A stretch of 64,000 nt of DNA. Origin: Candidatus Omnitrophota bacterium. GTDB lineage: Bacteria; Omnitrophota; Gorgyraeia; Zapsychrales; Zapsychraceae. The notes under the pieces are model-generated. The model saw only the letters and a list, made by a program, of their open reading frames with translations, did not search any database and was not told the origin of the DNA. How positions within the stretch are numbered: the stretch's first letter is position 1; every line of letters starts with the position of its first letter. Both the position numbers and the translations under genes were made by a program. This document shows, piece by piece, positions 3,990 to 34,930 of the stretch. The DNA is taken from positions 11,087 to 75,086 of the forward strand of contig JAHFGL010000005.1 of the NCBI GenBank assembly GCA_023247445.1, given 5' to 3'.

Positions 3990-5747
3990 CTACTTAATAT
4001 CGTAGGCGACGATTGTCTTTTTCCCTTTAAAGAAATAAACCCGTCCACCCGGATGATCAACCGTATACTCTGGTTCTTTTTCATTAAATATAAATTCACC
4101 GTCAGTATTTCCCGTTGCTAAATTAATTGCGAGGATCCCAATCCCACTGCCTTCCTCTCCTGTAACTTTCGTCAGAATAAAGGCATGCTCTTGACCACTT
4201 TGCGATTTAGAATAACGTTTATCCATATATCTATCCATACGGGCGAATGTGCTGGTAATATTCTGTGAAGCTCCTGACATCGAAGATTGTCCCGTTGCAT
4301 ATTGCATTTGATATCCTAAAGCAGCAAACGCCGAAACACCAACCATCAGCGCCGTGCCTAAAGTCGATGGCCCTGGTGATGGATAATACAACGACCAATT
4401 GATTTCTTTTGTATCTGGAGCAAACGAAAGAATATGCTGACGTCCACGAATAACAACGGCCCCATTATCTTGACCAGAAATCGAGACAGGAGGATCTTCC
4501 CGTTCCTTCCCAACAGCCATTTTCGCTCCAGCTTTTAGAAGACCACCCAACCCTCCCGTTAATGCCTTAACTCCGGCGGAAGCGACATCGGTCGTCCCAA
4601 TGCTGCGTTTAAATTCTAAAGGAGTTTTAAATGCTTCTTTAACCTTACCTTTACTTTGGCTATCAATCCCGATTAAACTTTTTGCATCAGCCAACATAAC
4701 GGTGTGTAGCGCTGGCAAATAAACCAAATTTGTTAACCCACCACTAGCACCGGTATATTCCCACAAAGCTGATCCATCGGTCTTGTTATACGATTTAACG
4801 GCTAAAGGTTTGTCCAACAAGAAATCCTTAGCGCCTGGACTAAAAAAGTTTCCACCAATCTTAGCTAACACCATTTCATCGGCAACGATTAACTGTGAAA
4901 TAAGTCCAGAACGAACTTTCTCACTTTTCCATTTCACCTCGCCCGTATTTTTATCAACCGCATAAACTTCTCCATTACCAGTGGCATACACAACATCTCC
5001 CTCGATAATCGGTGCCGCATAAGATTTTTTATAAGTTTTATCGGCCGTTGGAAATTCAACACCCCAAAGAATATTTCCTGTGGTCACATCCACGCAGTGC
5101 AGTCCAGCAATAGAAAAATAAGCGTTATTGCCGTCGAAAACAGGATCTTGATAACCGCCCAAATCAAGTGTCACACTAAACATCCCAGAATTATCCGCGA
5201 CATAAAGTGGAATTTTCTTTGGATTGACCGGAAACGGCGATTCCCATTTTTGCTCACCGGTCACCGCATCAAAGGCCAAGAGATAAATCCCAGGATCTTT
5301 ATTTTTGTCCGTATAAACATTGGAAACAAAGATAGTCATGGTTTTATCAGGAACTGTATAAATCCCAAGAGGTGCGCCAAACATTTTATCCGTCTTCCAT
5401 TTTGTCTGGCCAGAACCCATATCAATAGCTTCGATAATTGATTTACTCCCTGCAATTCCCGTGCTTTGCACAACAATAAGAATCGGGTATCCCGAAACTT
5501 CGCGAACCTCATACGGCGCCAAATTCGAAAAGTCTTCACGCGTCCACATCACTTCGCCGGTTTCTGGATTGTAGCTCGAAAGCGATCCCTTCGCTCCGAT
5601 GAGCAATGTTCCATAAACAGTCGTTCGCCCCCAGAGAATTTTATCTTTGACAGGCTGTTGCCAAACTTCTGTTGAAGCCATCGCTAGGGGTGAAAAGTTA
5701 AGCGTAATAAACGTTAAAAGTATTAAACAACTGATCACTCTTCTCAT
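3990..5747 (-). CDS. Secreted PQQ-like beta-propeller repeat protein
   Basis: Signal peptide MRRVISCLILLTFITLNFSPLAMA. Repeated TG(E/N)xxW blades follow. Start chosen at internal Met; the track ORF extends to 5798. Confidence 0.65.
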   Translation of the reverse strand: MRRVISCLILLTFITLNFSPLAMASTEVWQQPVKDKILWGRTTVYGTLLIGAKGSLSSYNPETGEVMWTREDFSNLAPYEVREVSGYPILIVVQSTGIAGSKSIIEAIDMGSGQTKWKTDKMFGAPLGIYTVPDKTMTIFVSNVYTDKNKDPGIYLLAFDAVTGEQKWESPFPVNPKKIPLYVADNSGMFSVTLDLGGYQDPVFDGNNAYFSIAGLHCVDVTTGNILWGVEFPTADKTYKKSYAAPIIEGDVVYATGNGEVYAVDKNTGEVKWKSEKVRSGLISQLIVADEMVLAKIGGNFFSPGAKDFLLDKPLAVKSYNKTDGSALWEYTGASGGLTNLVYLPALHTVMLADAKSLIGIDSQSKGKVKEAFKTPLEFKRSIGTTDVASAGVKALTGGLGGLLKAGAKMAVGKEREDPPVSISGQDNGAVVIRGRQHILSFAPDTKEINWSLYYPSPGPSTLGTALMVGVSAFAALGYQMQYATGQSSMSGASQNITSTFARMDRYMDKRYSKSQSGQEHAFILTKVTGEEGSGIGILAINLATGNTDGEFIFNEKEPEYTVDHPGGRVYFFKGKKTIVAYDIK

Positions 5748-5865
5748 CGATGATCCTTTCATTAGTATCTTGTTGTACGATAAAATTTTTCGGGTCATTA
5801 TAGACTAGGGATTATTATTCAGGCAAGGAGTTTTTAGATCTCAAGAATTTGGCAGGTAAAATTTA

Positions 5866-16124: not shown

Positions 16125-17423
<1,299 letters not shown>

Positions 17424-17622
17424 TTAATCTGATGTAAAAGATTAGTCGCCAAATTAACATAGTTTATCTCTAAAGTCAAGCGCCAAGACTTAGATGCTGT
17501 GCAAGTTAAGACAAATTTGCCGCCAGCCGCTATATTCAAGAATTTATGATATACTTTACTCTAGTATCATGATAAATTATGAAATTAATTGAACAGCTAA
17601 TAATTTAAAGAAAGAATAAAAC

Positions 17623-20600
17623 ATGCAAAAGATTATTATTTGGCTCAAAATTAATTGGTTAAAAATCCTTCTAATCGTCCTCTTTACCCTACTTCTCGCC
17701 AGCCTTATTGCCTATTGTACCTATATCTACCAAAGCTACCTTGGCCTTGAAAATTTTACAAAAAAACAAGTCGCGGGTACGCAGGCGATGTACATGCCGA
17801 TGATGGTGTTTTCTCAACTTCTTACGCTTCCTTTTGTCTTTGCGATGTATTACTACATCATGACGGGCGGCGGCGCTGGAACGTTTAAAAAACCCGAAGT
17901 TTCTAAAATGAATGTCAAATGGAGCGACATTATTGGCATGGAAGAAGCCAAAAAAGATGCGCTAGAAGTTATCCGATTTCTTAAAGATCACTCGATGCAA
18001 AAGGCTATTGGTGGAAATGTTATCAAGGGAACCATTCTTCTTGGACCTCCAGGTTGCGGGAAAACATATTTGGCCAAGGCGATCGCCACCGAATGTGGAC
18101 TTCCCATGATCTCAGCGACAGGAAGTGATTTTGTGGCGATGTATATGGGTCAAGGGGCCGCAAGAATGAAATCCCTTTTTAAGCAGGCCCGCTCTGAAGC
18201 TAAAATCCATGGCGGATGTATTATTTTTATCGATGAAATCGATGCCTTTGCCCGTCCCCGCCAGCAAGAAATGGGCGGTGGGGCAACAACATCCCACAAT
18301 GCCACCATCAATCAATTTCTAACTGAATTTGATGGGTTACGCAAAAAAGAAAATAACATTATTGTTCTGGCCGCCTCCAATGTTGAAGAAGATGAACTCG
18401 ACCCAGCGATTATGCGATCCGGTCGCTTTGATCGAAAAATTTATGTTGAGAAACCAAACGCTCGAGAACGTGAAGCCTTAATCAAATTTTATCTTTCGAA
18501 AGTTGAAGCAGATAAAAATCTTGATATTGGATTGTTTGCCGAAAAGGCGCAATGGTTCTCCCCTTCCGATATCTATAACATGATTCGAGAAGCCGGAGTC
18601 ATTGCCATTAGAAATAATCATAAAGCTATTGCCAACGAAGATTTAAATGCTGGTCTACAGCGTGTCATATCCTCAATTGAAAAAACTGGTGGAGCAAAAA
18701 TCCTAAGCCAGAAGGTCAATATTAAGTGGGATCAATTAATTGGCATGGAAGAAACAAAAAAGGATGCGTGGGAAATTGTAGAACTTTTGCGTGATCGCCA
18801 TCGCTTAAAAGTGATCGGCGGCCAAATTATTAAAGGTGTCATCATGATCGGCCCGCCGGGATGCGGCAAAACTTATTTGGCTAAGGCCATGGCGACCGAA
18901 TCAGGTTTTCCCTTTATGACCGCCACAGGTGGAGAATTCACAGGCAAATATTGGGGTTCTGGCGTTGAAAGGATTAAAGAATTATTTAAAGAAGCCCGTA
19001 AACTGGCCAAGACCGAAGGCGGATGCATCATCTTTATCGATGAGATCGACGCGCTCATTCGTCCGCGCGAGCAAAAAGGAGTTGAACCCGGGGGTGATCG
19101 TCATTCCAACGCTACCGTCAATCAGTTTCTATCAGAAATGGACGGTCTAAAAAATATGGATGAAGGAAATGTCGTTGTCTTGGCGGCAACTAACGTCGAT
19201 GAAGGAAATCTTGATGAAGCGGTGCTGCGCTCAGGACGATTTGATCGCAAGATTTATTTCAGCAAACCTTCTTCAAAAGACAGAGAAAAATTACTCCAAT
19301 ATTATCTTTCTAAAATAAAAACAGATGAAACCGTAAATATTCCCCACCTTGCGGATAAAGCCAAATGGTTTTCAGCCGCTGATATTAATAATATGGTCAG
19401 AGAGTCCGGCATTTTAGCTTTACGAGAAAAACGAGAAATTATCTCAATGGACGATTTAGAAAAAGCGCTGGATCGTGTCATGATATCGATTGAACACACG
19501 GGTGAAAATAAAATCCTTGGCAACAAAGTCAATGTTAAGTGGGATGAAGTCATTGGCATGAACGATGCCAAAGAAGAAGCCTGGGAAATTGTTAAATTAC
19601 TTAAAGACCGAAATATGGTCAAAGCCGTCGGAGGAAAAATCGTTAAAGGTGTCATTATGTTTGGTCCTCCCGGCTGCGGGAAAACATATTTGGCTAAGGC
19701 CATGGCGACAGAAGCTGGATTTCCATTTATGACTGCCCAGGGAAGCGATCTTGTTGGTGTTTGGGTGGGTGAAGGCGCCAGAAAGATGAAAGATATTTTC
19801 AAAGAAGCTCGAGCGATGGCCCGCGCCGAAGGCGGATGTATCATCTTCTTTGATGAAATAGATTCTTTCGCAACCCCGCGTGGAAAAGATATGGGCGGCG
19901 GCGGAATGACAAGTCACAACGCCGCGATCAATCAATTCTTGACAGAGCTCGATGGGTTAAGACAGCAGGAAAATAATATTTTTGTTTTAGCGGCCACAAA
20001 TGTGAAAGAAAAAGATCTCGACCCTGCTATCTTAAGGGCCGGAAGAATTGAAAGAAAAATTTATATCAAACGCCCCAACCTCCAAGAGAGAACAGATTTG
20101 CTCAATTTTTATTTGGCTAAAGTAAAAATTAATGCGGGTGTCGAGGCAAAAGCCTGGGCACGGATTGCGGTTGGATTTACACCGTCTGAAATTGATAATT
20201 TAATCCGTGAGGCAGGACTTTTGGCTTTACGCAACAATAGGGATACTATCAACCAAACCGATATGACGGAAGCTTATGATCGAATTACAATCGGGTCATT
20301 ATCCAACGCACGTTATTCGGAAAAAGAAAAAACCATGACGGCCTATCATGAAGCCGGGCACGCCATCATGACCTATCTCATCCATCCTACCGACGAAGTC
20401 ATCAAAGCAACCATTAGGCCTCGCAAGGATTACTTGGGATACATTTATTATCGTCAGGCGGACGATTTTGAACCAGGAGCTTCCAATATAGAAGAAGAAC
20501 TCGCTAAAATTAAAATTTCTATAGCTGGTTATGCTGCTGAAAAAATTGTTTATGGAACAGTGACCACAGGTGTTTGGGGCGATTTCCAACATATCATGCA

Positions 20601-20913
20601 ATATGCGCATCGTATGGTCTGGGAATTAGGCATGGGTAAATCTGGATTTCTTGGCAACTTTCTTTCCATTGGCTCACAACATGGAGAGCTTTATATGTCT
20701 GAGAAAACAAAAGAGACATTGGATAATGATGTGCAACAAATATTACAATCAAGCCTCAAAGAAACGATGGACATTCTGACCAAACATAGAGATCTGTTGG
20801 ATTATTTTACTCAAGAACTTTTGAAAAAAGGTGATTTGCAATATGACGAGATCGTTGCCATATTTGATAAATTTGGATTAAAGCCGCTGACAAGACCACC
20901 CAAGGTCTCGTAA
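17623..20913 (+). CDS. FtsH-like membrane metalloprotease with three tandem complete AAA+ modules and one M41 peptidase domain (HEAGH)
   Basis: 2 N-terminal TM helices, no periplasmic domain. Three ~250-aa modules each carry Walker A GPPGCGKTYLAKA, Walker B IIF(I/F)DEID, an aromatic pore loop (MYMG / KYWG / VWVG) and an SRH/arginine finger (SGRFDRK x2, AGRIERK). The C-terminal part has HEAGHAIM. A TTCAAG...TATACT promoter lies upstream. Confidence 0.85.
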   Translation: MQKIIIWLKINWLKILLIVLFTLLLASLIAYCTYIYQSYLGLENFTKKQVAGTQAMYMPMMVFSQLLTLPFVFAMYYYIMTGGGAGTFKKPEVSKMNVKWSDIIGMEEAKKDALEVIRFLKDHSMQKAIGGNVIKGTILLGPPGCGKTYLAKAIATECGLPMISATGSDFVAMYMGQGAARMKSLFKQARSEAKIHGGCIIFIDEIDAFARPRQQEMGGGATTSHNATINQFLTEFDGLRKKENNIIVLAASNVEEDELDPAIMRSGRFDRKIYVEKPNAREREALIKFYLSKVEADKNLDIGLFAEKAQWFSPSDIYNMIREAGVIAIRNNHKAIANEDLNAGLQRVISSIEKTGGAKILSQKVNIKWDQLIGMEETKKDAWEIVELLRDRHRLKVIGGQIIKGVIMIGPPGCGKTYLAKAMATESGFPFMTATGGEFTGKYWGSGVERIKELFKEARKLAKTEGGCIIFIDEIDALIRPREQKGVEPGGDRHSNATVNQFLSEMDGLKNMDEGNVVVLAATNVDEGNLDEAVLRSGRFDRKIYFSKPSSKDREKLLQYYLSKIKTDETVNIPHLADKAKWFSAADINNMVRESGILALREKREIISMDDLEKALDRVMISIEHTGENKILGNKVNVKWDEVIGMNDAKEEAWEIVKLLKDRNMVKAVGGKIVKGVIMFGPPGCGKTYLAKAMATEAGFPFMTAQGSDLVGVWVGEGARKMKDIFKEARAMARAEGGCIIFFDEIDSFATPRGKDMGGGGMTSHNAAINQFLTELDGLRQQENNIFVLAATNVKEKDLDPAILRAGRIERKIYIKRPNLQERTDLLNFYLAKVKINAGVEAKAWARIAVGFTPSEIDNLIREAGLLALRNNRDTINQTDMTEAYDRITIGSLSNARYSEKEKTMTAYHEAGHAIMTYLIHPTDEVIKATIRPRKDYLGYIYYRQADDFEPGASNIEEELAKIKISIAGYAAEKIVYGTVTTGVWGDFQHIMQYAHRMVWELGMGKSGFLGNFLSIGSQHGELYMSEKTKETLDNDVQQILQSSLKETMDILTKHRDLLDYFTQELLKKGDLQYDEIVAIFDKFGLKPLTRPPKVS

Positions 20914-21773
20914 TGAAACTAAACAGATCTTGCTATCTTCTATTTGTTATTTGTTTAATCAGCTTAACGGGCTGTTCAAAAAAGTCTCCTCCTCCCCCAA
21001 CATCATCTGAAGCGCATCAAAAATTAATTAAAATCTGTAAGGAAGAATTCAAGGAAAACATTACGTTAAAAGACGTGGGCAAAACACTCTGGATTTATTT
21101 TCCCATGAAAGAAAATATGTTTGAGATCAAAGCTAGCCGTCCATCGGAAGAAGAAAACAAAGATCCCAAAACTAAACAGGTCGTTCGTTTTATCGATGGA
21201 TCATTTAAAGACGAGAGCTTCCACATTAAATACGATATTATCTCTAACAAAATTTATAGCAAAAGTTATGGCTATGCGTCCTCTTATTCAGAAATTTATC
21301 AACGAAAACAGCGTCAAATCTTCGATGCCTTTTCGCGGGCTTATTTGGAGGCCAATCCTGGGCCAGAATTTATTGTTTTTGTCATCGCAGATATCACCAA
21401 CGGTGTTGAAAGTGAAAATATTCTATATTTCAAAGATCTGAAAGAATCTCTAACGGTCTCACCTGAAGAATATTTAAAGCGCGTCGTTTCTGACTTGCGC
21501 GGAAGTTTAGACATTATTAACGACACCACTGGGACACATTTAAAATATTTAGAGATCACGATGCCCAATTTTCTCGCTAAACAGATCATCAATCGCATCA
21601 ACTTTAAATATCAACGCAGTTCCTTCCCTCCCGAAAACGATCCCGTCACTGAAATCAAGAGTATCCTAAGTGAAACCTTCCAAGCTTATGAATTTCGCGA
21701 TTATCAATCGGTTGAGTTGGAAGATTTGGACAAGCTAAAGACGACAACAATTTTAAGGACAGAATTAAATTAA
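20913..21773 (+). CDS. Lipoprotein of unknown function, translationally coupled to the FtsH-like gene
   Basis: TAATG stop/start overlap. Lipobox LTGC after the signal peptide, followed by a PPPP linker. Confidence 0.7.
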   Translation: MKLNRSCYLLFVICLISLTGCSKKSPPPPTSSEAHQKLIKICKEEFKENITLKDVGKTLWIYFPMKENMFEIKASRPSEEENKDPKTKQVVRFIDGSFKDESFHIKYDIISNKIYSKSYGYASSYSEIYQRKQRQIFDAFSRAYLEANPGPEFIVFVIADITNGVESENILYFKDLKESLTVSPEEYLKRVVSDLRGSLDIINDTTGTHLKYLEITMPNFLAKQIINRINFKYQRSSFPPENDPVTEIKSILSETFQAYEFRDYQSVELEDLDKLKTTTILRTELN

Positions 21774-21834
21774 CGACCTGGAGAAATACTTTTTACAACT
21801 GCGAAAAAAAATCTGCCCTTAAGTTTCAATCGGT

Positions 21835-21903
21835 CGTCATCCTGAGCAAAGCGAAGGATCTCTTCGGAGATCCTTCAGTCGCTTTCGCTCCTTCAGGATG
21901 ACG
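21835..21903. repeat. REP-like palindrome, GTCATCCTGAGCAAAGCGAAGGATC...GATCCTTC...CAGGATGAC variant
   Basis: Imperfect inverted repeat between the lipoprotein gene and purN. Confidence 0.7.
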
Positions 21904-21906
21904 GTC

Positions 21907-22506
21907 TTATTCAACAGTAACTTTCCTTCCCTTAACCTTCAACTTCCCCTGGGCAAAGAGAGCAATCGCTTTAGGATAAATTTTGTGCTCAACACTGTGG
22001 ATTTTCTCGGCCAGAGATTCCAACGTTTCATCTTCGGCAACTTTGATGGCTTCCTGCATAATCATCGGCCCATGATCCATTTTCTCATCGACAAAATGAA
22101 TGGTCACGCCTGTTACCTTAGCGCCATAGGTAAACGCATCTTTGATTCCATCAATTCCTTTAAAAGATGGCAAAAGCGATGGATGAACGTTTAAAATCTT
22201 TTGCGGATATTCGCGGATAAAAAATGGTGTTAACAATTTCATATAACCTGCTAATACAATAAAATCAATTTTTGCTTCTTTTAAATGAATAACAATAGCC
22301 CGTTCGTAGCTTTGCGGCGTGGCGTAATGTTTGGGATCAACAAAAAGCGTTTTGATGCCTGCCTCCTCGGCCCGCTTTAAAGCATAGGCCTTTCTATTAT
22401 TAGAGAAGACAAGCACTAGCTCGGCCTTAATCTCTGCCGCTTTAACGCTATCGATGATTGCTTGTAAGTTGCTTCCGTTTCCGGAGGCGAAAACTGCGAA
22501 ACGCAT
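21907..22506 (-). CDS. purN: Phosphoribosylglycinamide formyltransferase
   Basis: 199 aa; FASGNGSNLQAI N-terminus; the formyl transferase fold pattern. Confidence 0.9.
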   Translation of the reverse strand: MRFAVFASGNGSNLQAIIDSVKAAEIKAELVLVFSNNRKAYALKRAEEAGIKTLFVDPKHYATPQSYERAIVIHLKEAKIDFIVLAGYMKLLTPFFIREYPQKILNVHPSLLPSFKGIDGIKDAFTYGAKVTGVTIHFVDEKMDHGPMIMQEAIKVAEDETLESLAEKIHSVEHKIYPKAIALFAQGKLKVKGRKVTVE

Positions 22507-29511: not shown

Positions 29512-30237
29512 CTAATTTAATATTTGTTTTATCGTTGAGATTAATAATTTGGGATTAACTGGTTTGGTTAAATGACTAACAGCCCCGACCTCTATCTCAG
29601 CCTGAATATCATCTTGGGAATCTTTCGATGTCAGAAAAACAACAGGAATATTCTTTGTTGAAGGATCATTCTTAAGGCGTTTACAAACTTCTCGTCCTTT
29701 AATCCCTGGCAAAATTACATCTAAAAGAATCAAATCGGGTTTTTGTGCCTTAGCAATCTGTAAACCATATTCTCCGCTTGGCGCGCTTAAAACAGCATAT
29801 CCACTGGTCATCAAAATAGGTCGAATCGTTTTAATATGAATTTCGTCATCATCAACAATCAAAATGCTTCGCCACTCTTTTGTCGTTTTGTCATGAAATT
29901 GTATTTTGACTTTTTCCTGACTGAAATACAAAAAAACCACAATGTTCATAAAAACAAAATAAATGGGAATTATATGAAGTTTCGGGATATACGGTGTAAT
30001 CAAACTAAAAAACATAATAATATTTAAAATGACAATTAAGCGTCTACCCCAGTCTTTGAGAGAAATGACGGCTAGAGAACAGATAAATAAAACGGCAGAA
30101 AGTACAATGTAGACAAAAGTACGTAGGTGATCATCTCCGGGAACGCGAATCGCGCCTAAGAAAACAAGCAGAGAAACCCCGTAAAGAATGGTTAAGGCGA
30201 ATCCAATAATTTTTAAATCAGGAAGAATTCTTTTCAT
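29512..30237 (-). CDS. Membrane-anchored response-regulator receiver (REC) protein
   Basis: 3 TM helices then ILIVDDDE...LLDVILPGIKG...TKP receiver motifs. Confidence 0.8.
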   Translation of the reverse strand: MKRILPDLKIIGFALTILYGVSLLVFLGAIRVPGDDHLRTFVYIVLSAVLFICSLAVISLKDWGRRLIVILNIIMFFSLITPYIPKLHIIPIYFVFMNIVVFLYFSQEKVKIQFHDKTTKEWRSILIVDDDEIHIKTIRPILMTSGYAVLSAPSGEYGLQIAKAQKPDLILLDVILPGIKGREVCKRLKNDPSTKNIPVVFLTSKDSQDDIQAEIEVGAVSHLTKPVNPKLLISTIKQILN

Positions 30238-31735
30238 GTCGTCTCGTTTTTAAAACCGCCAGTAGTATACATCCAAAACAAAAATATGTAAAAATATCTC
30301 CAAATTTTGTGTAAAAGGTTTTTTCAGAATTAAGCTGAGCATGGGCAACAGCATAATTAATGACAAATGTTTTCTTATGATGAGTATCTTCCACATATTT
30401 AGTAATATGCCCAAAGCGGTCAATAAAACAGCTGACGCCTGTGTTGGCCGCACGAATAAGATCCCGTCTGTTCTCAACCGCTCGAAAGACAGAGCTTTGC
30501 AGATGCATAAATGGCTCTTTACTATCTTTAAACCACGCATCGTTTGTAATGTTAATCAACAATTGTGCTCCTTGATTAACGAATTTTCGGGCGAGTGCAG
30601 GAAGTGTATCTTCAAAACAAATTAATGTAGAAAACCTTAGTGGTGAGCTTGTCGAACCATTAGCTTCTCTTACTGAGGGAAATGAAAAGATTGTATGCTT
30701 ATGGCCTGCCGTAAAATCGGCGATGGGAACAATAAACTGTAAAGCGGGAAATGTATGACGAAAAGGAATAAACTCTCCAAAAGGAACCAATCGAATCTTG
30801 TCATAACGATCAACTACCTCTCCTCTATTTGATAAAAGAACTGCCGAATTATAATAAGCATCATCTTCCATAAGCACTGAACCAAAAAGAAGAGGAATCT
30901 TGACCCCTCTTACAAAATCCTGTAATTGCGCAAATAATCCTTCGTCCTCTCCAATAATATCGGGAAAAGATGTCTCGGGCCAAACAATAAGATCGGGTTT
31001 CTCTTGCGCGGCTAATTCTGTGAGCGTTTGGTGATCATTTAAGATTTTTGAGTACAAAGATTCAACCCATTTCATTTCTTGCGGGATGCTTGCCTGAACA
31101 ACAGCCACAGACATTTGCGGTAAATTTTCTTTCGTCTGATTTAAACGAAAAAATCCGTAAGAAAGGACTATCCCCAACACAAGAAGAACAACAATCGCTG
31201 ATTGATATATTTCTTTTTTAAGAAACCGCCCATTAAAAAATTCTTTTAGCAAAACATTGACCATAACAATTAGAAACGATAAACCATAAATACCGGTAAT
31301 ATCGACGATTTGAATAAGCGGCAATGCCTTCGATTGCGATTCCCCAAGTGCCGCCCAACCAAATCCGCTAAATAAATGCGCTCGTGTATATTCTAAAGCA
31401 ACCCACAAACTGGGAATGACAATAATCTTAAAAAAAATATTTTGTTTGGAAAAATACTGATATCCGAGGGCAAAACAACCAAAGTAGATAGCACAATAGA
31501 GGCTTAAGAGAATTGTGCCAACAACCGTCACATTCGTTAACCAAAAAAATGATATGAAGAAAAAAATGAATCCACTCAAAAATCCAAAACTACCCGCTTG
31601 CTTATAATTTTGTTTATCAAAAAGACAAAATAAAGGAACAAACCCTATCCAAGCTAAAATCCAAATATTTGTTTGGGGAAAAGTTAAGGCGAGTAGGACC
31701 GCTGAAAGTAACGACAGAAAATAATTTAAGATCAT
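30218..31735 (-). CDS. lnt: Apolipoprotein N-acyltransferase
   Basis: Polytopic N-terminus plus CN-hydrolase domain (LIVWPETSF). Confidence 0.9.
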   Translation of the reverse strand: MILNYFLSLLSAVLLALTFPQTNIWILAWIGFVPLFCLFDKQNYKQAGSFGFLSGFIFFFISFFWLTNVTVVGTILLSLYCAIYFGCFALGYQYFSKQNIFFKIIVIPSLWVALEYTRAHLFSGFGWAALGESQSKALPLIQIVDITGIYGLSFLIVMVNVLLKEFFNGRFLKKEIYQSAIVVLLVLGIVLSYGFFRLNQTKENLPQMSVAVVQASIPQEMKWVESLYSKILNDHQTLTELAAQEKPDLIVWPETSFPDIIGEDEGLFAQLQDFVRGVKIPLLFGSVLMEDDAYYNSAVLLSNRGEVVDRYDKIRLVPFGEFIPFRHTFPALQFIVPIADFTAGHKHTIFSFPSVREANGSTSSPLRFSTLICFEDTLPALARKFVNQGAQLLINITNDAWFKDSKEPFMHLQSSVFRAVENRRDLIRAANTGVSCFIDRFGHITKYVEDTHHKKTFVINYAVAHAQLNSEKTFYTKFGDIFTYFCFGCILLAVLKTRRHEKNSS

Positions 31736-31942: not shown

Positions 31943-34930
31943 TCATTGACCACAGCATTTCTTATATTTCTTTCCACTCCCGCATGGGCATGGATCATTG
32001 CGGCCAACTTTAGGACCTTCATTGCGCATCGGTGCTGAGCTGGACACGGGAACAGATTGAGGAGCTGACGGAGGAACTTGTCCTTGGGCTTGAGCTTGCT
32101 GCATTAAAGCAGCATTGGATAAACCAGAAATTTCATCATGGACTAATTTTTGTGGCAATGAACTAAAGACGCCTTTAATTTTACTTTCTTTTTCAGCAGG
32201 CTGAATCTTAAATATCATTTCCGCCACTTCTTGATTGATCGATGAATACATCACCTGAAACATCGCAAAGGCTTCTTTCTTATACTCAATCAAAGGATCA
32301 CGTTGACCATAAGATCTAAGGCCAATTCCTTCTTTTAATTGATCCATCGCATACAAATGATCTTTCCATTTTGAGTCAATGGTGTGAAGCATAAACATCC
32401 GTTCCAGATGTCGCAAATGGATTGGATCAATATCTTTTTCTTTTTGATTATATATTTCATTAACTTCTTTAATAATAAAATCAGACGCCTCTTGTTGCCC
32501 CATGCTTTTTAATTTTTCTTTATGCGACGTAACATCATAATTAAATGTCGTCTTTAAATAAACGGCCAATCCTTCAACATCCGGCTCAACGCCTTCTTTC
32601 TCTGAAACCAAATATTGGGCAACCGCGGCATATAATGTATCGCCCACCGCCTCAACAATAAGATCTTTCACATTATCTGTTTCTAAAATTGATCGACGCA
32701 AACTATAAATAACCTCACGCTGGAGATTCATGACGTTATCGTATTCCAAAAGATGTTTACGAATCTCGAAGTTATGTGTCTCAACACGTTTCTGCGCTGT
32801 TTCAAGCGCCTTACTTAACCACGGATGTTCCAGCGCCTGACCTTCGTCCATTCCCAAACGCTCCATAAGTCCCATGATTCGATCCGAAGCAAAGAGTCGC
32901 ATTAAATCATCTTCCAAAGAAACATAAAAGCGCGAAGAACCTGGATCACCTTGACGTCCCTGACGACCGCGCAGCTGATTATCGATCCGTCTCGATTCAT
33001 GACGTTCCGTGCCCAAGACATGTAACCCACCAGCAGCGACAACCTTGTCATGCTCTTCTTTAACTTGCTGACGGAATTGTTCAATAAACTTCTGGACCAA
33101 TTGAGCCTGCGCATCTTTATCTTGTGAATCTTTTGATTTTTCTTCAGCCAATTTCTTTGCCAAATATTCTGCATTTCCTCCCAAAACAATATCCGTTCCA
33201 CGTCCGGCCATATTGGTGGCGATTGTGACCGCCCTATACCGGCCCGCTTGCGCGATGATGTGCGCTTCCATCTCGTGATACTTAGCATTTAATACTTGAT
33301 GCGCAATCCCTTTCTCTTTAAGCATCCGAGATAAAAGTTCCGACTTCTCAATAGAAATTGTACCAACCAAGGCCGGTTGTCCACGTTTATGACAATCTTC
33401 AATTTCCGTTACAACAGCCGTAAACTTTTCTTTTAACGATTTATAAATACAATCGGCATGATTAACACGTTGAACTTTTCTATTTGGTGGAATAACAATA
33501 CAGTCGAGATTATAGATTTGTTTAAATTCGTTAGCTTCTGTTTCGGCGGTACCCGTCATCCCCGCTAATTTTTCATACAAACGGAAATAATTTTGGAAGG
33601 TAATCGTCGCTAGAGTCTGATTCTCACGCTCGATCTTAATTCCTTCTTTAGCCTCTACCGCTTGATGCAGCCCATCCGACCAACGTCGGCCCGGCATCAA
33701 ACGCCCGGTAAATTCATCGACAATAATAACCTCGCCGTCATTGACGACATAATCAACATCAATCTTAAAAAATTCTTTTGCTTTTATAGCTTGCAGAATA
33801 TGATGGCGATATTCAATTGTTTCCATGTCATGCATATTCGGTATGCCAAAAAGCTGCGCCGCTTTCGTTTCACCTTCTTCGGTCAGCGAAATCGATCGAT
33901 TCTTTTCATCCGCTAGATAATCATATCCTTTGGCTAAATCAATCTCTTTGTGTTTTGCCTCAATTTGATCATTTTCCGTAATCCGTCGACCTTTAAGTTG
34001 TTTACAAATCACATTGGCCTTGTAATACGTGTCGGTCGACTCTTCTGCCGGGCCAGAAATAATAAGCGGGGTGCGAGCTTCGTCAATTAAAATACTATCA
34101 ACTTCGTCAACAATCGCAAAATGGTGAGCACGCTGCACCATGTCTTCCTTATAGTTGACCATGTTGCTGCGCAAATAATCAAAACCAAATTCATTGTTAG
34201 TTCCATAGGTAATATCACATCCATAGGCCGCTTGACGCGAAGGAGGATCCATATCGTGTTGAATAACACCAACAGTTAATCCAAGCGATTCATAAATAGG
34301 ACCCATCCAATTGCGGTCACGATTAGCCAAATAATCATTAACCGTGACCACATGAACGCCATCGCCGGTTAACGCATTTAGATACGCCGGCAATGTGGCC
34401 ACAAGTGTCTTTCCTTCCCCCGTCGTCATCTCCGCGATATTGCCGCCATGCAAAACCATTCCACCAATCATCTGCACATCAAAATGCCGCATGTTTAAAA
34501 CACGCTTGCCCATCTCTCGAACAATGGCAAAGGCCTCCGGCAAAATTTTATTTAAAAAATCTCCTTTAGCCTTCTTTAAAATTTCTTTAGCCTTCTCTAC
34601 TTGTAGATTAATTTCTTCTTTACCTTCTCCCTCGGGAGCTTTTCTATAAAGCTCTAAAATACGATCATATTCCTGTCTCTCTTTTTCAACAGCCTTTTGA
34701 TATTGAGCCTTAAATTGTTCTGTTTTAGCGCGCAACTGATCGCTAGTTAATTGGCTGATTTGAGATTCAAGACTGTTAATCTTAGAAACAGTTGCTGACA
34801 TTTTTCTAAGTAGCGCAATGGAAGGTAAAAGCAAATCTGGTGGGACGTGAATATCCACCTTAGGATTTAATTGATCAATAAATTTTTGTGCACCGCTGAC
34901 AATGGTATTTCGTATTAAAAAATCAAACAT
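31943..34930 (-). CDS. secA: Preprotein translocase ATPase SecA
   Basis: 995 aa, DEAD-like motor motifs, C-terminal zinc finger CPCGSGKKYKKCCG. Confidence 0.95.
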   Translation of the reverse strand: MFDFLIRNTIVSGAQKFIDQLNPKVDIHVPPDLLLPSIALLRKMSATVSKINSLESQISQLTSDQLRAKTEQFKAQYQKAVEKERQEYDRILELYRKAPEGEGKEEINLQVEKAKEILKKAKGDFLNKILPEAFAIVREMGKRVLNMRHFDVQMIGGMVLHGGNIAEMTTGEGKTLVATLPAYLNALTGDGVHVVTVNDYLANRDRNWMGPIYESLGLTVGVIQHDMDPPSRQAAYGCDITYGTNNEFGFDYLRSNMVNYKEDMVQRAHHFAIVDEVDSILIDEARTPLIISGPAEESTDTYYKANVICKQLKGRRITENDQIEAKHKEIDLAKGYDYLADEKNRSISLTEEGETKAAQLFGIPNMHDMETIEYRHHILQAIKAKEFFKIDVDYVVNDGEVIIVDEFTGRLMPGRRWSDGLHQAVEAKEGIKIERENQTLATITFQNYFRLYEKLAGMTGTAETEANEFKQIYNLDCIVIPPNRKVQRVNHADCIYKSLKEKFTAVVTEIEDCHKRGQPALVGTISIEKSELLSRMLKEKGIAHQVLNAKYHEMEAHIIAQAGRYRAVTIATNMAGRGTDIVLGGNAEYLAKKLAEEKSKDSQDKDAQAQLVQKFIEQFRQQVKEEHDKVVAAGGLHVLGTERHESRRIDNQLRGRQGRQGDPGSSRFYVSLEDDLMRLFASDRIMGLMERLGMDEGQALEHPWLSKALETAQKRVETHNFEIRKHLLEYDNVMNLQREVIYSLRRSILETDNVKDLIVEAVGDTLYAAVAQYLVSEKEGVEPDVEGLAVYLKTTFNYDVTSHKEKLKSMGQQEASDFIIKEVNEIYNQKEKDIDPIHLRHLERMFMLHTIDSKWKDHLYAMDQLKEGIGLRSYGQRDPLIEYKKEAFAMFQVMYSSINQEVAEMIFKIQPAEKESKIKGVFSSLPQKLVHDEISGLSNAALMQQAQAQGQVPPSAPQSVPVSSSAPMRNEGPKVGRNDPCPCGSGKKYKKCCGQ

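Follow-up and report, generated by a model that had tools for sequence, protein, structure and literature searches.

In a 64,000-nucleotide stretch of a Candidatus Omnitrophota genome (contig JAHFGL010000005.1, positions 11,087 to 75,086; the whole stretch is called the window here), a single gene encodes a protein of 1096 amino acids in which three complete FtsH-type AAA+ motor modules (M1, M2 and M3) precede one M41 zinc metalloprotease domain. Known AAA+ unfoldases have either a single ring (type I) or a double ring (type II). For this protein the best-supported arrangement, and in our judgment a reasonably probable one, is a hexamer in which three coaxial AAA+ rings stand over one M41 ring. 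The gene belongs to a set of orthologs with different numbers of modules, and a lipoprotein gene lies directly behind it. The features of the locus are as follows, in coordinates of the window.

17623..20913, + strand: gene of the short-loop FtsH-like protease with three AAA+ modules (open reading frame list, Pfam and NCBIfam; stop codon TAA at 20911-20913)
17659..17727, + strand: transmembrane helix 1, about residues 13-35 (hydropathy windows; AlphaFold helix 2-40)
17728..17784, + strand: predicted periplasmic loop of about 20 residues (no PF06480 match; E43 invariant, F45 nearly so)
17785..17862, + strand: transmembrane helix 2, about residues 55-80 (hydropathy; AlphaFold helix 44-80)
17890..18696, + strand: AAA+ module M1, residues 90-358 (Walker A at 141, Walker B at 200, pore loop MYMG, second region of homology, SRH, at 265)
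18697..19509, + strand: AAA+ module M2, residues 359-629 (Walker A at 410, Walker B at 469, pore loop KYWG, SRH at 536)
19510..20316, + strand: AAA+ module M3, residues 630-898 (Walker A at 681, Walker B at 740, pore loop VWVG, SRH at 805)
20317..20910, + strand: M41 zinc metalloprotease domain, residues 899-1096 (PF01434; HEAGH at 909-913, nucleotides 20347-20361)
20911..20915, + strand: TAATG stop/start overlap between the protease gene and the lipoprotein gene (read from the sequence)
20913..21773, + strand: lipoprotein of 286 amino acids (signal peptide with lipobox LTGC at residues 18-21, nucleotides 20964-20975, and Cys21; proline-rich tether; alpha/beta domain)

The sequence-only reading of this DNA had proposed two closely spaced transmembrane helices with essentially no periplasmic domain between them, three complete FtsH-type modules and a single HEAGH protease domain, and profile searches bear this out. 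Pfam assigned three AAA domains (PF00004; E = 2.7e-114 for the three stretches together), three AAA_lid_3 domains and one Peptidase_M41 domain at residues 898-1079 (PF01434; E = 1.8e-36), and the NCBIfam profile FtsH_fam (TIGR01241) scored 922.9 bits, its best stretch spanning profile positions 154-598 only. The motifs GPPGCGKT (Walker A), DEID (Walker B) and RxGRxxR (SRH) each occur three times and HEAGH once, and the pore loops carry an aromatic residue in every module, tyrosine in M1 and M2 and tryptophan in M3. Each module also scored above 500 bits against a module hidden Markov model (HMM), a score that is partly circular because the three modules themselves went into the model; independent support comes from the Pfam AAA match. 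The modules abut without spacers at a constant period of about 270 residues, and it is M3 that adjoins the protease domain. In an alignment of the family, H909, E910, H913 and E973 of the M41 domain are invariant, and E973 is likely the third zinc ligand.

Hydropathy analysis found only two hydrophobic segments in the protein, with a loop of about 20 residues between them, and Pfam found no match to FtsH_ext (PF06480) between the helices, a domain present in all canonical FtsH proteins compared. In the family alignment, E43 of this short loop is invariant and F45 nearly so. The N-terminus consists of the two transmembrane helices only, with no counterpart of the cofactor- or substrate-binding N domain of p97-type proteins. 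Members of the FtsH family have one AAA module per protomer, whereas this protein has three complete ones.

Among the best 120 database clusters of relatives, three modules per protein were found in 41, two in 73, four in 6 and six in 1; 34 of the 41 three-module clusters are complete with an HExxH-bearing M41 domain, and most of the others are truncated. Nearly all named matches come from metagenome-assembled genomes of Candidatus Omnitrophota. Orthologs with one, two, three, four or six modules share one synteny: enolase and DivIC genes on one side, the protease gene, and then an open reading frame of 286-357 amino acids without a Pfam match, beyond which lies PurN where the contig reaches, with MFS and TPR genes as well in several loci. 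The upstream neighbors differ at one of the four three-module loci examined (P0013). The series at this locus runs from a one-module ortholog (P0153, 564 amino acids) to a four-module ortholog of 1369 amino acids with one M41 domain (P0008; L003:8001-12110, on a 2.0-Mb contig of GCA_020632495.1, at the enolase-DivIC locus) and a six-module ortholog of 1861 amino acids, also with one M41 domain and at the enolase-DivIC locus (P0001; L016:6001-11586). The modules of P0001 follow the order first, "2of4"-type, three middle-type and last; they are 46-78% identical overall (58-78% among the three middle-type copies), and the six-module protein was found in two assemblies.

Positional orthology was read from a neighbor-joining tree of 270 modules. 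First modules all cluster together, as do last modules, such that M1 is orthologous to the first module of two- and four-module relatives and M3 to the last module of all relatives. The sister of M2 in the main three-module clade is module 3 of the four-module proteins, whose module 2 forms a separate clade. When canonical FtsH and other tandem AAA proteins were included in the tree, all Omnitrophota modules fell within one FtsH-type clade, which identifies the expansion as an internal duplication of FtsH's own motor and led us to reject an origin of the extra modules from a Cdc48-like gene. Taken as a comparison of sequences, the family of one-, two-, three-, four- and six-module orthologs supports a history in which module number changed by stepwise internal duplication.

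The sequence-only reading had also suggested an old triplication kept under selection, and the conservation of the modules agrees with it. We scored 27 members of the main three-module clade, including the protein of the window. In 27/27, all three modules keep the Walker A lysine and threonine, the Walker B aspartate-glutamate pair, the sensor-1 asparagine and all three SRH arginines, both arginine fingers among them. The pore-loop glycine is nearly always kept, and the aromatic position of the pore loop mostly so (F/I/Y/L in M1, W/Y/F in M2 and Y/F/W in M3). Against the closest ortholog (P0002, 85% identity), nonsynonymous divergence (pN) was 0.105 in M1, 0.046 in M2, 0.074 in M3 and 0.110 in M41, M2 being the most constrained part of the protein; synonymous divergence (pS) was 0.6-0.73 and saturated, so dN/dS lies well below 0.1 in every module and in M41. 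These alignments support an old duplication maintained by selection across the main three-module clade. A second three-module clade comprises seven clusters at about 47% identity to the protein of the window (P0054, P0056, P0057, P0059, P0065, P0066 and P0070); its middle module keeps Walker A and has lost Walker B (S-N instead), sensor 1 and the pore loop. That module is probably a non-hydrolyzing, ATP-binding structural tier, resembling the inactive rings of some type II AAA+ proteins.

Three ATPase rings over one protease ring had been pictured from the DNA alone, and this arrangement stands as the best supported, inferred as it is from sequence and a monomer model. Cdc48, p97 and VAT align colinearly over two successive modules (residues 367-878 of the query against 211-718 of Cdc48), such that the spacing between modules equals the D1-D2 spacing, and M3 with M41 aligns to FtsH (7zbh; E = 1.7e-83). 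Every junction reuses the native hinge between AAA lid and M41 (…RVxxSIExTG…) and then runs into KVNxKW, the motif of the N-terminal strand in the following module, and so the chain would exit a module where the protease would hang and enter the next one at its membrane-facing end. An AlphaFold2 model of the monomer reached a pLDDT (predicted local distance difference test) of 77 and a pTM (predicted template modeling score) of 0.51, with linkers 356-364 and 627-630 below pLDDT 50. Superposed with Foldseek, this monomer prediction of pTM 0.51 matched D1-D2 protomers (p97, Cdc48 and NVL in substrate-engaged form) with target-normalized template modeling scores of 0.75-0.79 over about 560 columns; its M3+M41 portion superposed on AFG3L2 with a score of 0.80. 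The arginine fingers in every module count for ring formation as well, since they only make sense at a ring interface, and the one-module ortholog at the locus implies that the AAA-M41 hexamer is ancestral and that tiers were inserted between this core and the membrane.

Relatives with more than one protease domain bear on the same question. In this class, found at another locus after smpB and still followed by a homolog of the lipoprotein, most internal M41 domains read YEAGH, the first zinc histidine being lost. By their domain order, proteins of the AAA-M41-AAA-M41 and AAA-M41-M41-AAA-M41 types can only be fitted to a vertical arrangement. The Omnitrophota proteins with the order TM-AAA-M41-AAA-M41 (TM, transmembrane) are P0103 (L023:7001-10075), P0053, P0085, P0096 and P0154, P0053 having the longer order AAA-M41-M41-AAA-M41.

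Several points weigh against stacked rings. The case is built on a monomer model and sequence, from which the oligomer is deduced, and the model is weak (pTM 0.51, low-confidence linkers, an alignment of 34 sequences). Its D1-D2-like geometry may be learned, as AlphaFold has seen p97, and the Foldseek superposition does not identify which two modules were matched. An inter-module linker of about 14 residues would not strictly preclude side-by-side packing. The searches made turned up no three-tier AAA+ stack, and none is known to us. We also count the canonical-FtsH status of the genome on this side; the window holds no second ftsH, and the best canonical FtsH representative in the comparison (P0169) is from Elusimicrobiota, not Omnitrophota.

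The side-by-side alternative would place the three modules in one plane, with two chains making a single six-module ring that carries two M41 domains per particle; two-module relatives would then be trimers and the six-module protein a monomeric ring. In its favor, the commonest module numbers (two and three) and the outlier (six) all divide six, the modules have diverged in a position-specific manner, pore-loop flanks included, as in heteromeric rings, and the interdomain linker might just reach a neighboring module. We nevertheless regard it as unlikely. Four does not divide a six-membered ring, so the four-module orthologs do not fit, and these are represented by six independent clusters at the same locus, some on Mb-scale contigs; because the six-module protein contains a "2of4"-type module, four and six cannot both be rescued by discounting one module. 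Together with the AAA-M41-AAA-M41 relatives, which cannot be planar, the four-module orthologs depart from the module counts of a single ring of the dynein or midasin type. The M41 domain, which in FtsH works as a closed six-fold chamber, is under strong constraint here, the one-module ortholog implies continuity of an AAA-M41 hexamer, and a stacked D1-D2 arrangement is matched both by the model and by the sequence spacing. Finally, the clade of the window protein contains no inactivated module, unlike most natural heteromeric rings.

No better placed is the possibility that only M3 and M41 form an FtsH-like hexamer while M1 and M2 are flexible arms serving ATP-dependent recruitment, regulation or spacing, which we likewise consider improbable. 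The low pLDDT of the inter-module linkers and the pTM of 0.51 would suit such arms, and some lineages tolerate a non-motor middle module, as seen in the second three-module clade; module 2 of the four-module proteins, moreover, has lost the pore-loop glycine. Yet among the 27 proteins scored, with few or no exceptions, M1 and M2 retain both arginine fingers, sensor 1 and a hydrophobic or aromatic pore loop. Such elements function only in a ring around a substrate, and the highest constraint of the whole protein falls in M2. With six tethered copies per hexamer, ring closure is to be expected of classic-clade AAA modules.

That the tandem modules are mis-assembled repeats, or a recent non-functional duplication decaying into a pseudogene, is scarcely credible, and we reject it: the modules are well diverged, the longest exact repeat within the gene is 23 nucleotides, the frame is open over 3.3 kb, purifying selection is strong, the same three-module architecture and synteny recur in dozens of independent assemblies, and an independent Logan contig contains the 3′ portion of the gene, joined by the same 1-nucleotide overlap to an identical lipoprotein gene. 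Codon alignments of M1, M2 and M3 give identities of 59-61% (DNA), 52-54% (protein) and 38-43% (third codon positions). The 75-80% nucleotide identity first estimated, the only wrong figure of the sequence-only reading, was thus too high, and at about 60% an assembly artefact is even less likely. The one point in favor of an artefact is that the public gene collection has no record of the exact 1096-residue product, with the identical downstream lipoprotein recorded (P0121); another start codon or a split gene in the source annotation may account for this.

If the three rings are stacked, the protein would be an inner-membrane, ATP-dependent zinc protease of the FtsH lineage in which the M41 ring holds the hexamer together, as in FtsH, and each chain contributes one module to each coaxial ring. 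The rings would lie between the membrane and the protease chamber, extending the type II plan of p97 and ClpA to three tiers. Substrates, probably membrane or membrane-proximal proteins, would enter the membrane-facing M1 ring, to be gripped by the aromatic pore loops of M1 and then of M2 and M3 and threaded down a long channel into the M41 chamber. FtsH is a weak unfoldase, and in ClpA, ClpB and p97 labor is divided between rings; the extra active tiers should provide more grip, less back-slipping and a greater unfolding or extraction force than single-ring FtsH has. On the other side of the membrane, the co-translated lipoprotein would supply a periplasmic partner or modulator in trans, the 20-residue loop having replaced the periplasmic domain.

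The start codon of the lipoprotein gene overlaps the protease stop by one nucleotide (TAATG), and a homolog lies directly downstream of every protease variant examined (E = 1e-10 to 1e-83). Beside genes with one, two, three, four and six modules, the homologs match the window protein at E = 1e-53 to 1e-83, and junctions range from a 1-nucleotide overlap to a 6-nucleotide gap, with the exception of a 55-nucleotide gap at the one-module locus L020. In the AAA-M41-AAA-M41 class (L023), the homolog matches at E = 1e-15 and the overlap is 4 nucleotides. This pairing, conserved across all variants, supports a functional link. The protein itself belongs to no family we could recognize: Pfam gave no match of any kind, SPFH/Band-7 included, NCBIfam gave a sub-threshold match only, and no close relative of its fold was found in the PDB. 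Its 32 homologs in the database all lack a Pfam domain and are all named "hypothetical protein". A lipobox is present in all neighboring copies, and its cysteine is at least 90% conserved (31 homologs).

The sequence-only reading had noted the overlapping TAATG and taken the lipoprotein for a possible adaptor or modulator. The genetic coupling has held up, and the lipoprotein is probably a partner or modulator; a cytoplasmic substrate adaptor it cannot be, since the lipoprotein should face the periplasm. From that orientation and the conserved short loop with its E43 and F45, we infer a periplasmic partner acting in trans, and the lipoprotein probably stands in, through a contact with the protease, for both the FtsH periplasmic domain and its modulators. 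HflK and HflC, membrane-anchored partners of canonical FtsH, contact its periplasmic domain and modulate it from that side of the membrane. The FtsH-HflK/HflC holoenzyme and the present pair have in common a periplasm-facing partner, here a lipoprotein genetically coupled to the protease; they differ in that the lipoprotein has no SPFH/Band-7 domain and the protease has no periplasmic domain of the kind that HflKC binds. The window also encodes the apolipoprotein N-acyltransferase Lnt (30218-31735, - strand), as well as a BamB-like beta-propeller and SecA (3990-5798 and 31943-34930, both - strand), which fits a diderm envelope with triacylated lipoproteins. At L018:7634-9682, 3′ of a single-module short-loop FtsH gene, a protein of 682 amino acids with the lipobox LLCSSC combines a lipoprotein-like domain with a long TPR region, and this fusion hints at a protein-binding role for the lipoprotein partner.

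With FtsH, m-AAA and i-AAA proteases (MEROPS M41; TIGR01241), the protein shares two N-terminal transmembrane helices, classic-clade AAA modules with FtsH-type pore loop and SRH, all of them FtsH-derived, and a C-terminal M41 domain with HEXXH and a downstream glutamate. It differs in that each chain has three AAA modules where theirs have one, FtsH_ext gives way to a loop of about 20 residues, and a lipoprotein gene is an obligatory neighbor. The type II unfoldases (p97/Cdc48/VAT, NVL, and ClpA/ClpC with ClpP) likewise carry tandem AAA modules in one chain, with the same D1-D2 spacing and, in the monomer model of pTM 0.51, a similar geometry. Hexamers of p97, Cdc48, VAT, ClpA and ClpC form two stacked rings that feed a protease, 20S or ClpP. 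Against their two tiers, the present protein has three modules and its relatives up to six, which would correspond to as many tiers; its protease is fused to the chain and not a separate complex, and it is anchored in the membrane and has no N-terminal cofactor-binding domain. Dynein and midasin (Rea1) also place many AAA modules in one polypeptide, six of them in P0001 too; in those proteins, however, the modules make one planar ring and several are inactive, whereas here module number varies (1, 2, 3, 4, 6) at one locus, all modules in the clade have active motifs and a ring-forming protease is attached. EccC of type VII secretion, likewise anchored in the membrane, has three tandem P-loop ATPase domains per chain, which stack as a multi-tier hexameric tube. 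It differs in being a secretion motor of the FtsK/HerA and not the classic AAA group, with no protease.

Multi-module architectures extend beyond Omnitrophota. An exhaustive HMMER search of 1.84 billion representatives returned 9234 proteins at E ≤ 1e-30, and of the best 150 we classified 147 and set aside three Omnitrophota representatives already in the family count. One module with M41 was found in 70/147, two modules with M41 in 29/147, and three to six tandem modules without M41 in 28/147; a further 7/147, about 37% identical to the window protein, combine three modules with M41. The search for multi-AAA FtsH homologs proposed in the sequence-only reading thus yielded many, in Omnitrophota and beyond. 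Three modules with M41 occur outside Omnitrophota in P0158/P0305 (Thermoleophilaceae, about 1185 amino acids), P0156, P0157, P0159, P0175, P0210 and P0291; the Thermoleophilaceae (Actinomycetota) cluster goes under the names "AAA family ATPase" or "FtsH". In the tree, the modules of each such distant lineage group with one another, which indicates that tandem expansion was repeated independently, as convergence, and on these grounds we rejected a single ancient triplication common to the phyla. Such independent expansion points to a selective advantage of a general kind. Arrays of three to six classic-clade AAA modules without M41 occur in metagenomic proteins, among them P0174 (2055 amino acids), P0160 (2124 amino acids), P0177 (1398 amino acids), P0211, P0264 and others, and one tandem-AAA protein without M41 is annotated "SpoVK/Ycf46/Vps4 family".

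As the sequence-only reading had surmised, the architecture appears undescribed for FtsH: in the full-text literature and recent FtsH reviews searched, we found no FtsH-type protease with more than one AAA module, characterized or otherwise, and in the full-text literature no description of a three-tier AAA+ machine, absence there not being proof. Multi-module sequences are nonetheless common in public databases under generic names, and labels such as "AAA family ATPase" or "FtsH" hide their architecture, an annotation gap. This FtsH with its dedicated lipoprotein, probably a multi-tier enzyme, is widespread in Omnitrophota and apparently unstudied.

The purpose of a second ring is still debated for ClpA, ClpB, Hsp104 and p97. 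Here one gene carries from one to six intact motor modules fused to its own protease; if these are stacked, the orthologs would make up a natural series in tier number within a simple homomeric system, a titration with which to ask how added AAA+ rings affect processivity, force and grip. Stacking would also put an end to the textbook view in which FtsH is a weak unfoldase with one ring. We give an even chance to the broader proposal that these Omnitrophota proteins are FtsH "towers", in which the number of coaxial active rings (1, 2, 3, 4 or 6) is an evolvable parameter of one gene, M41 rings are sometimes interleaved and the lipoprotein replaces the periplasmic domain; they would then be the first natural AAA+ machines with at least three rings. 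The lipoprotein, for its part, may represent a novel class of partner for FtsH, in a phylum whose bacteria are ultra-small and poorly understood.

A promoter and terminator scan of positions 17300-22000 gave nothing above shuffled expectation. The rest of the window is ordinary chromosome, with genes for LeuRS, MnmG and MurJ alongside those for SecA, Lnt and the BamB-like protein.

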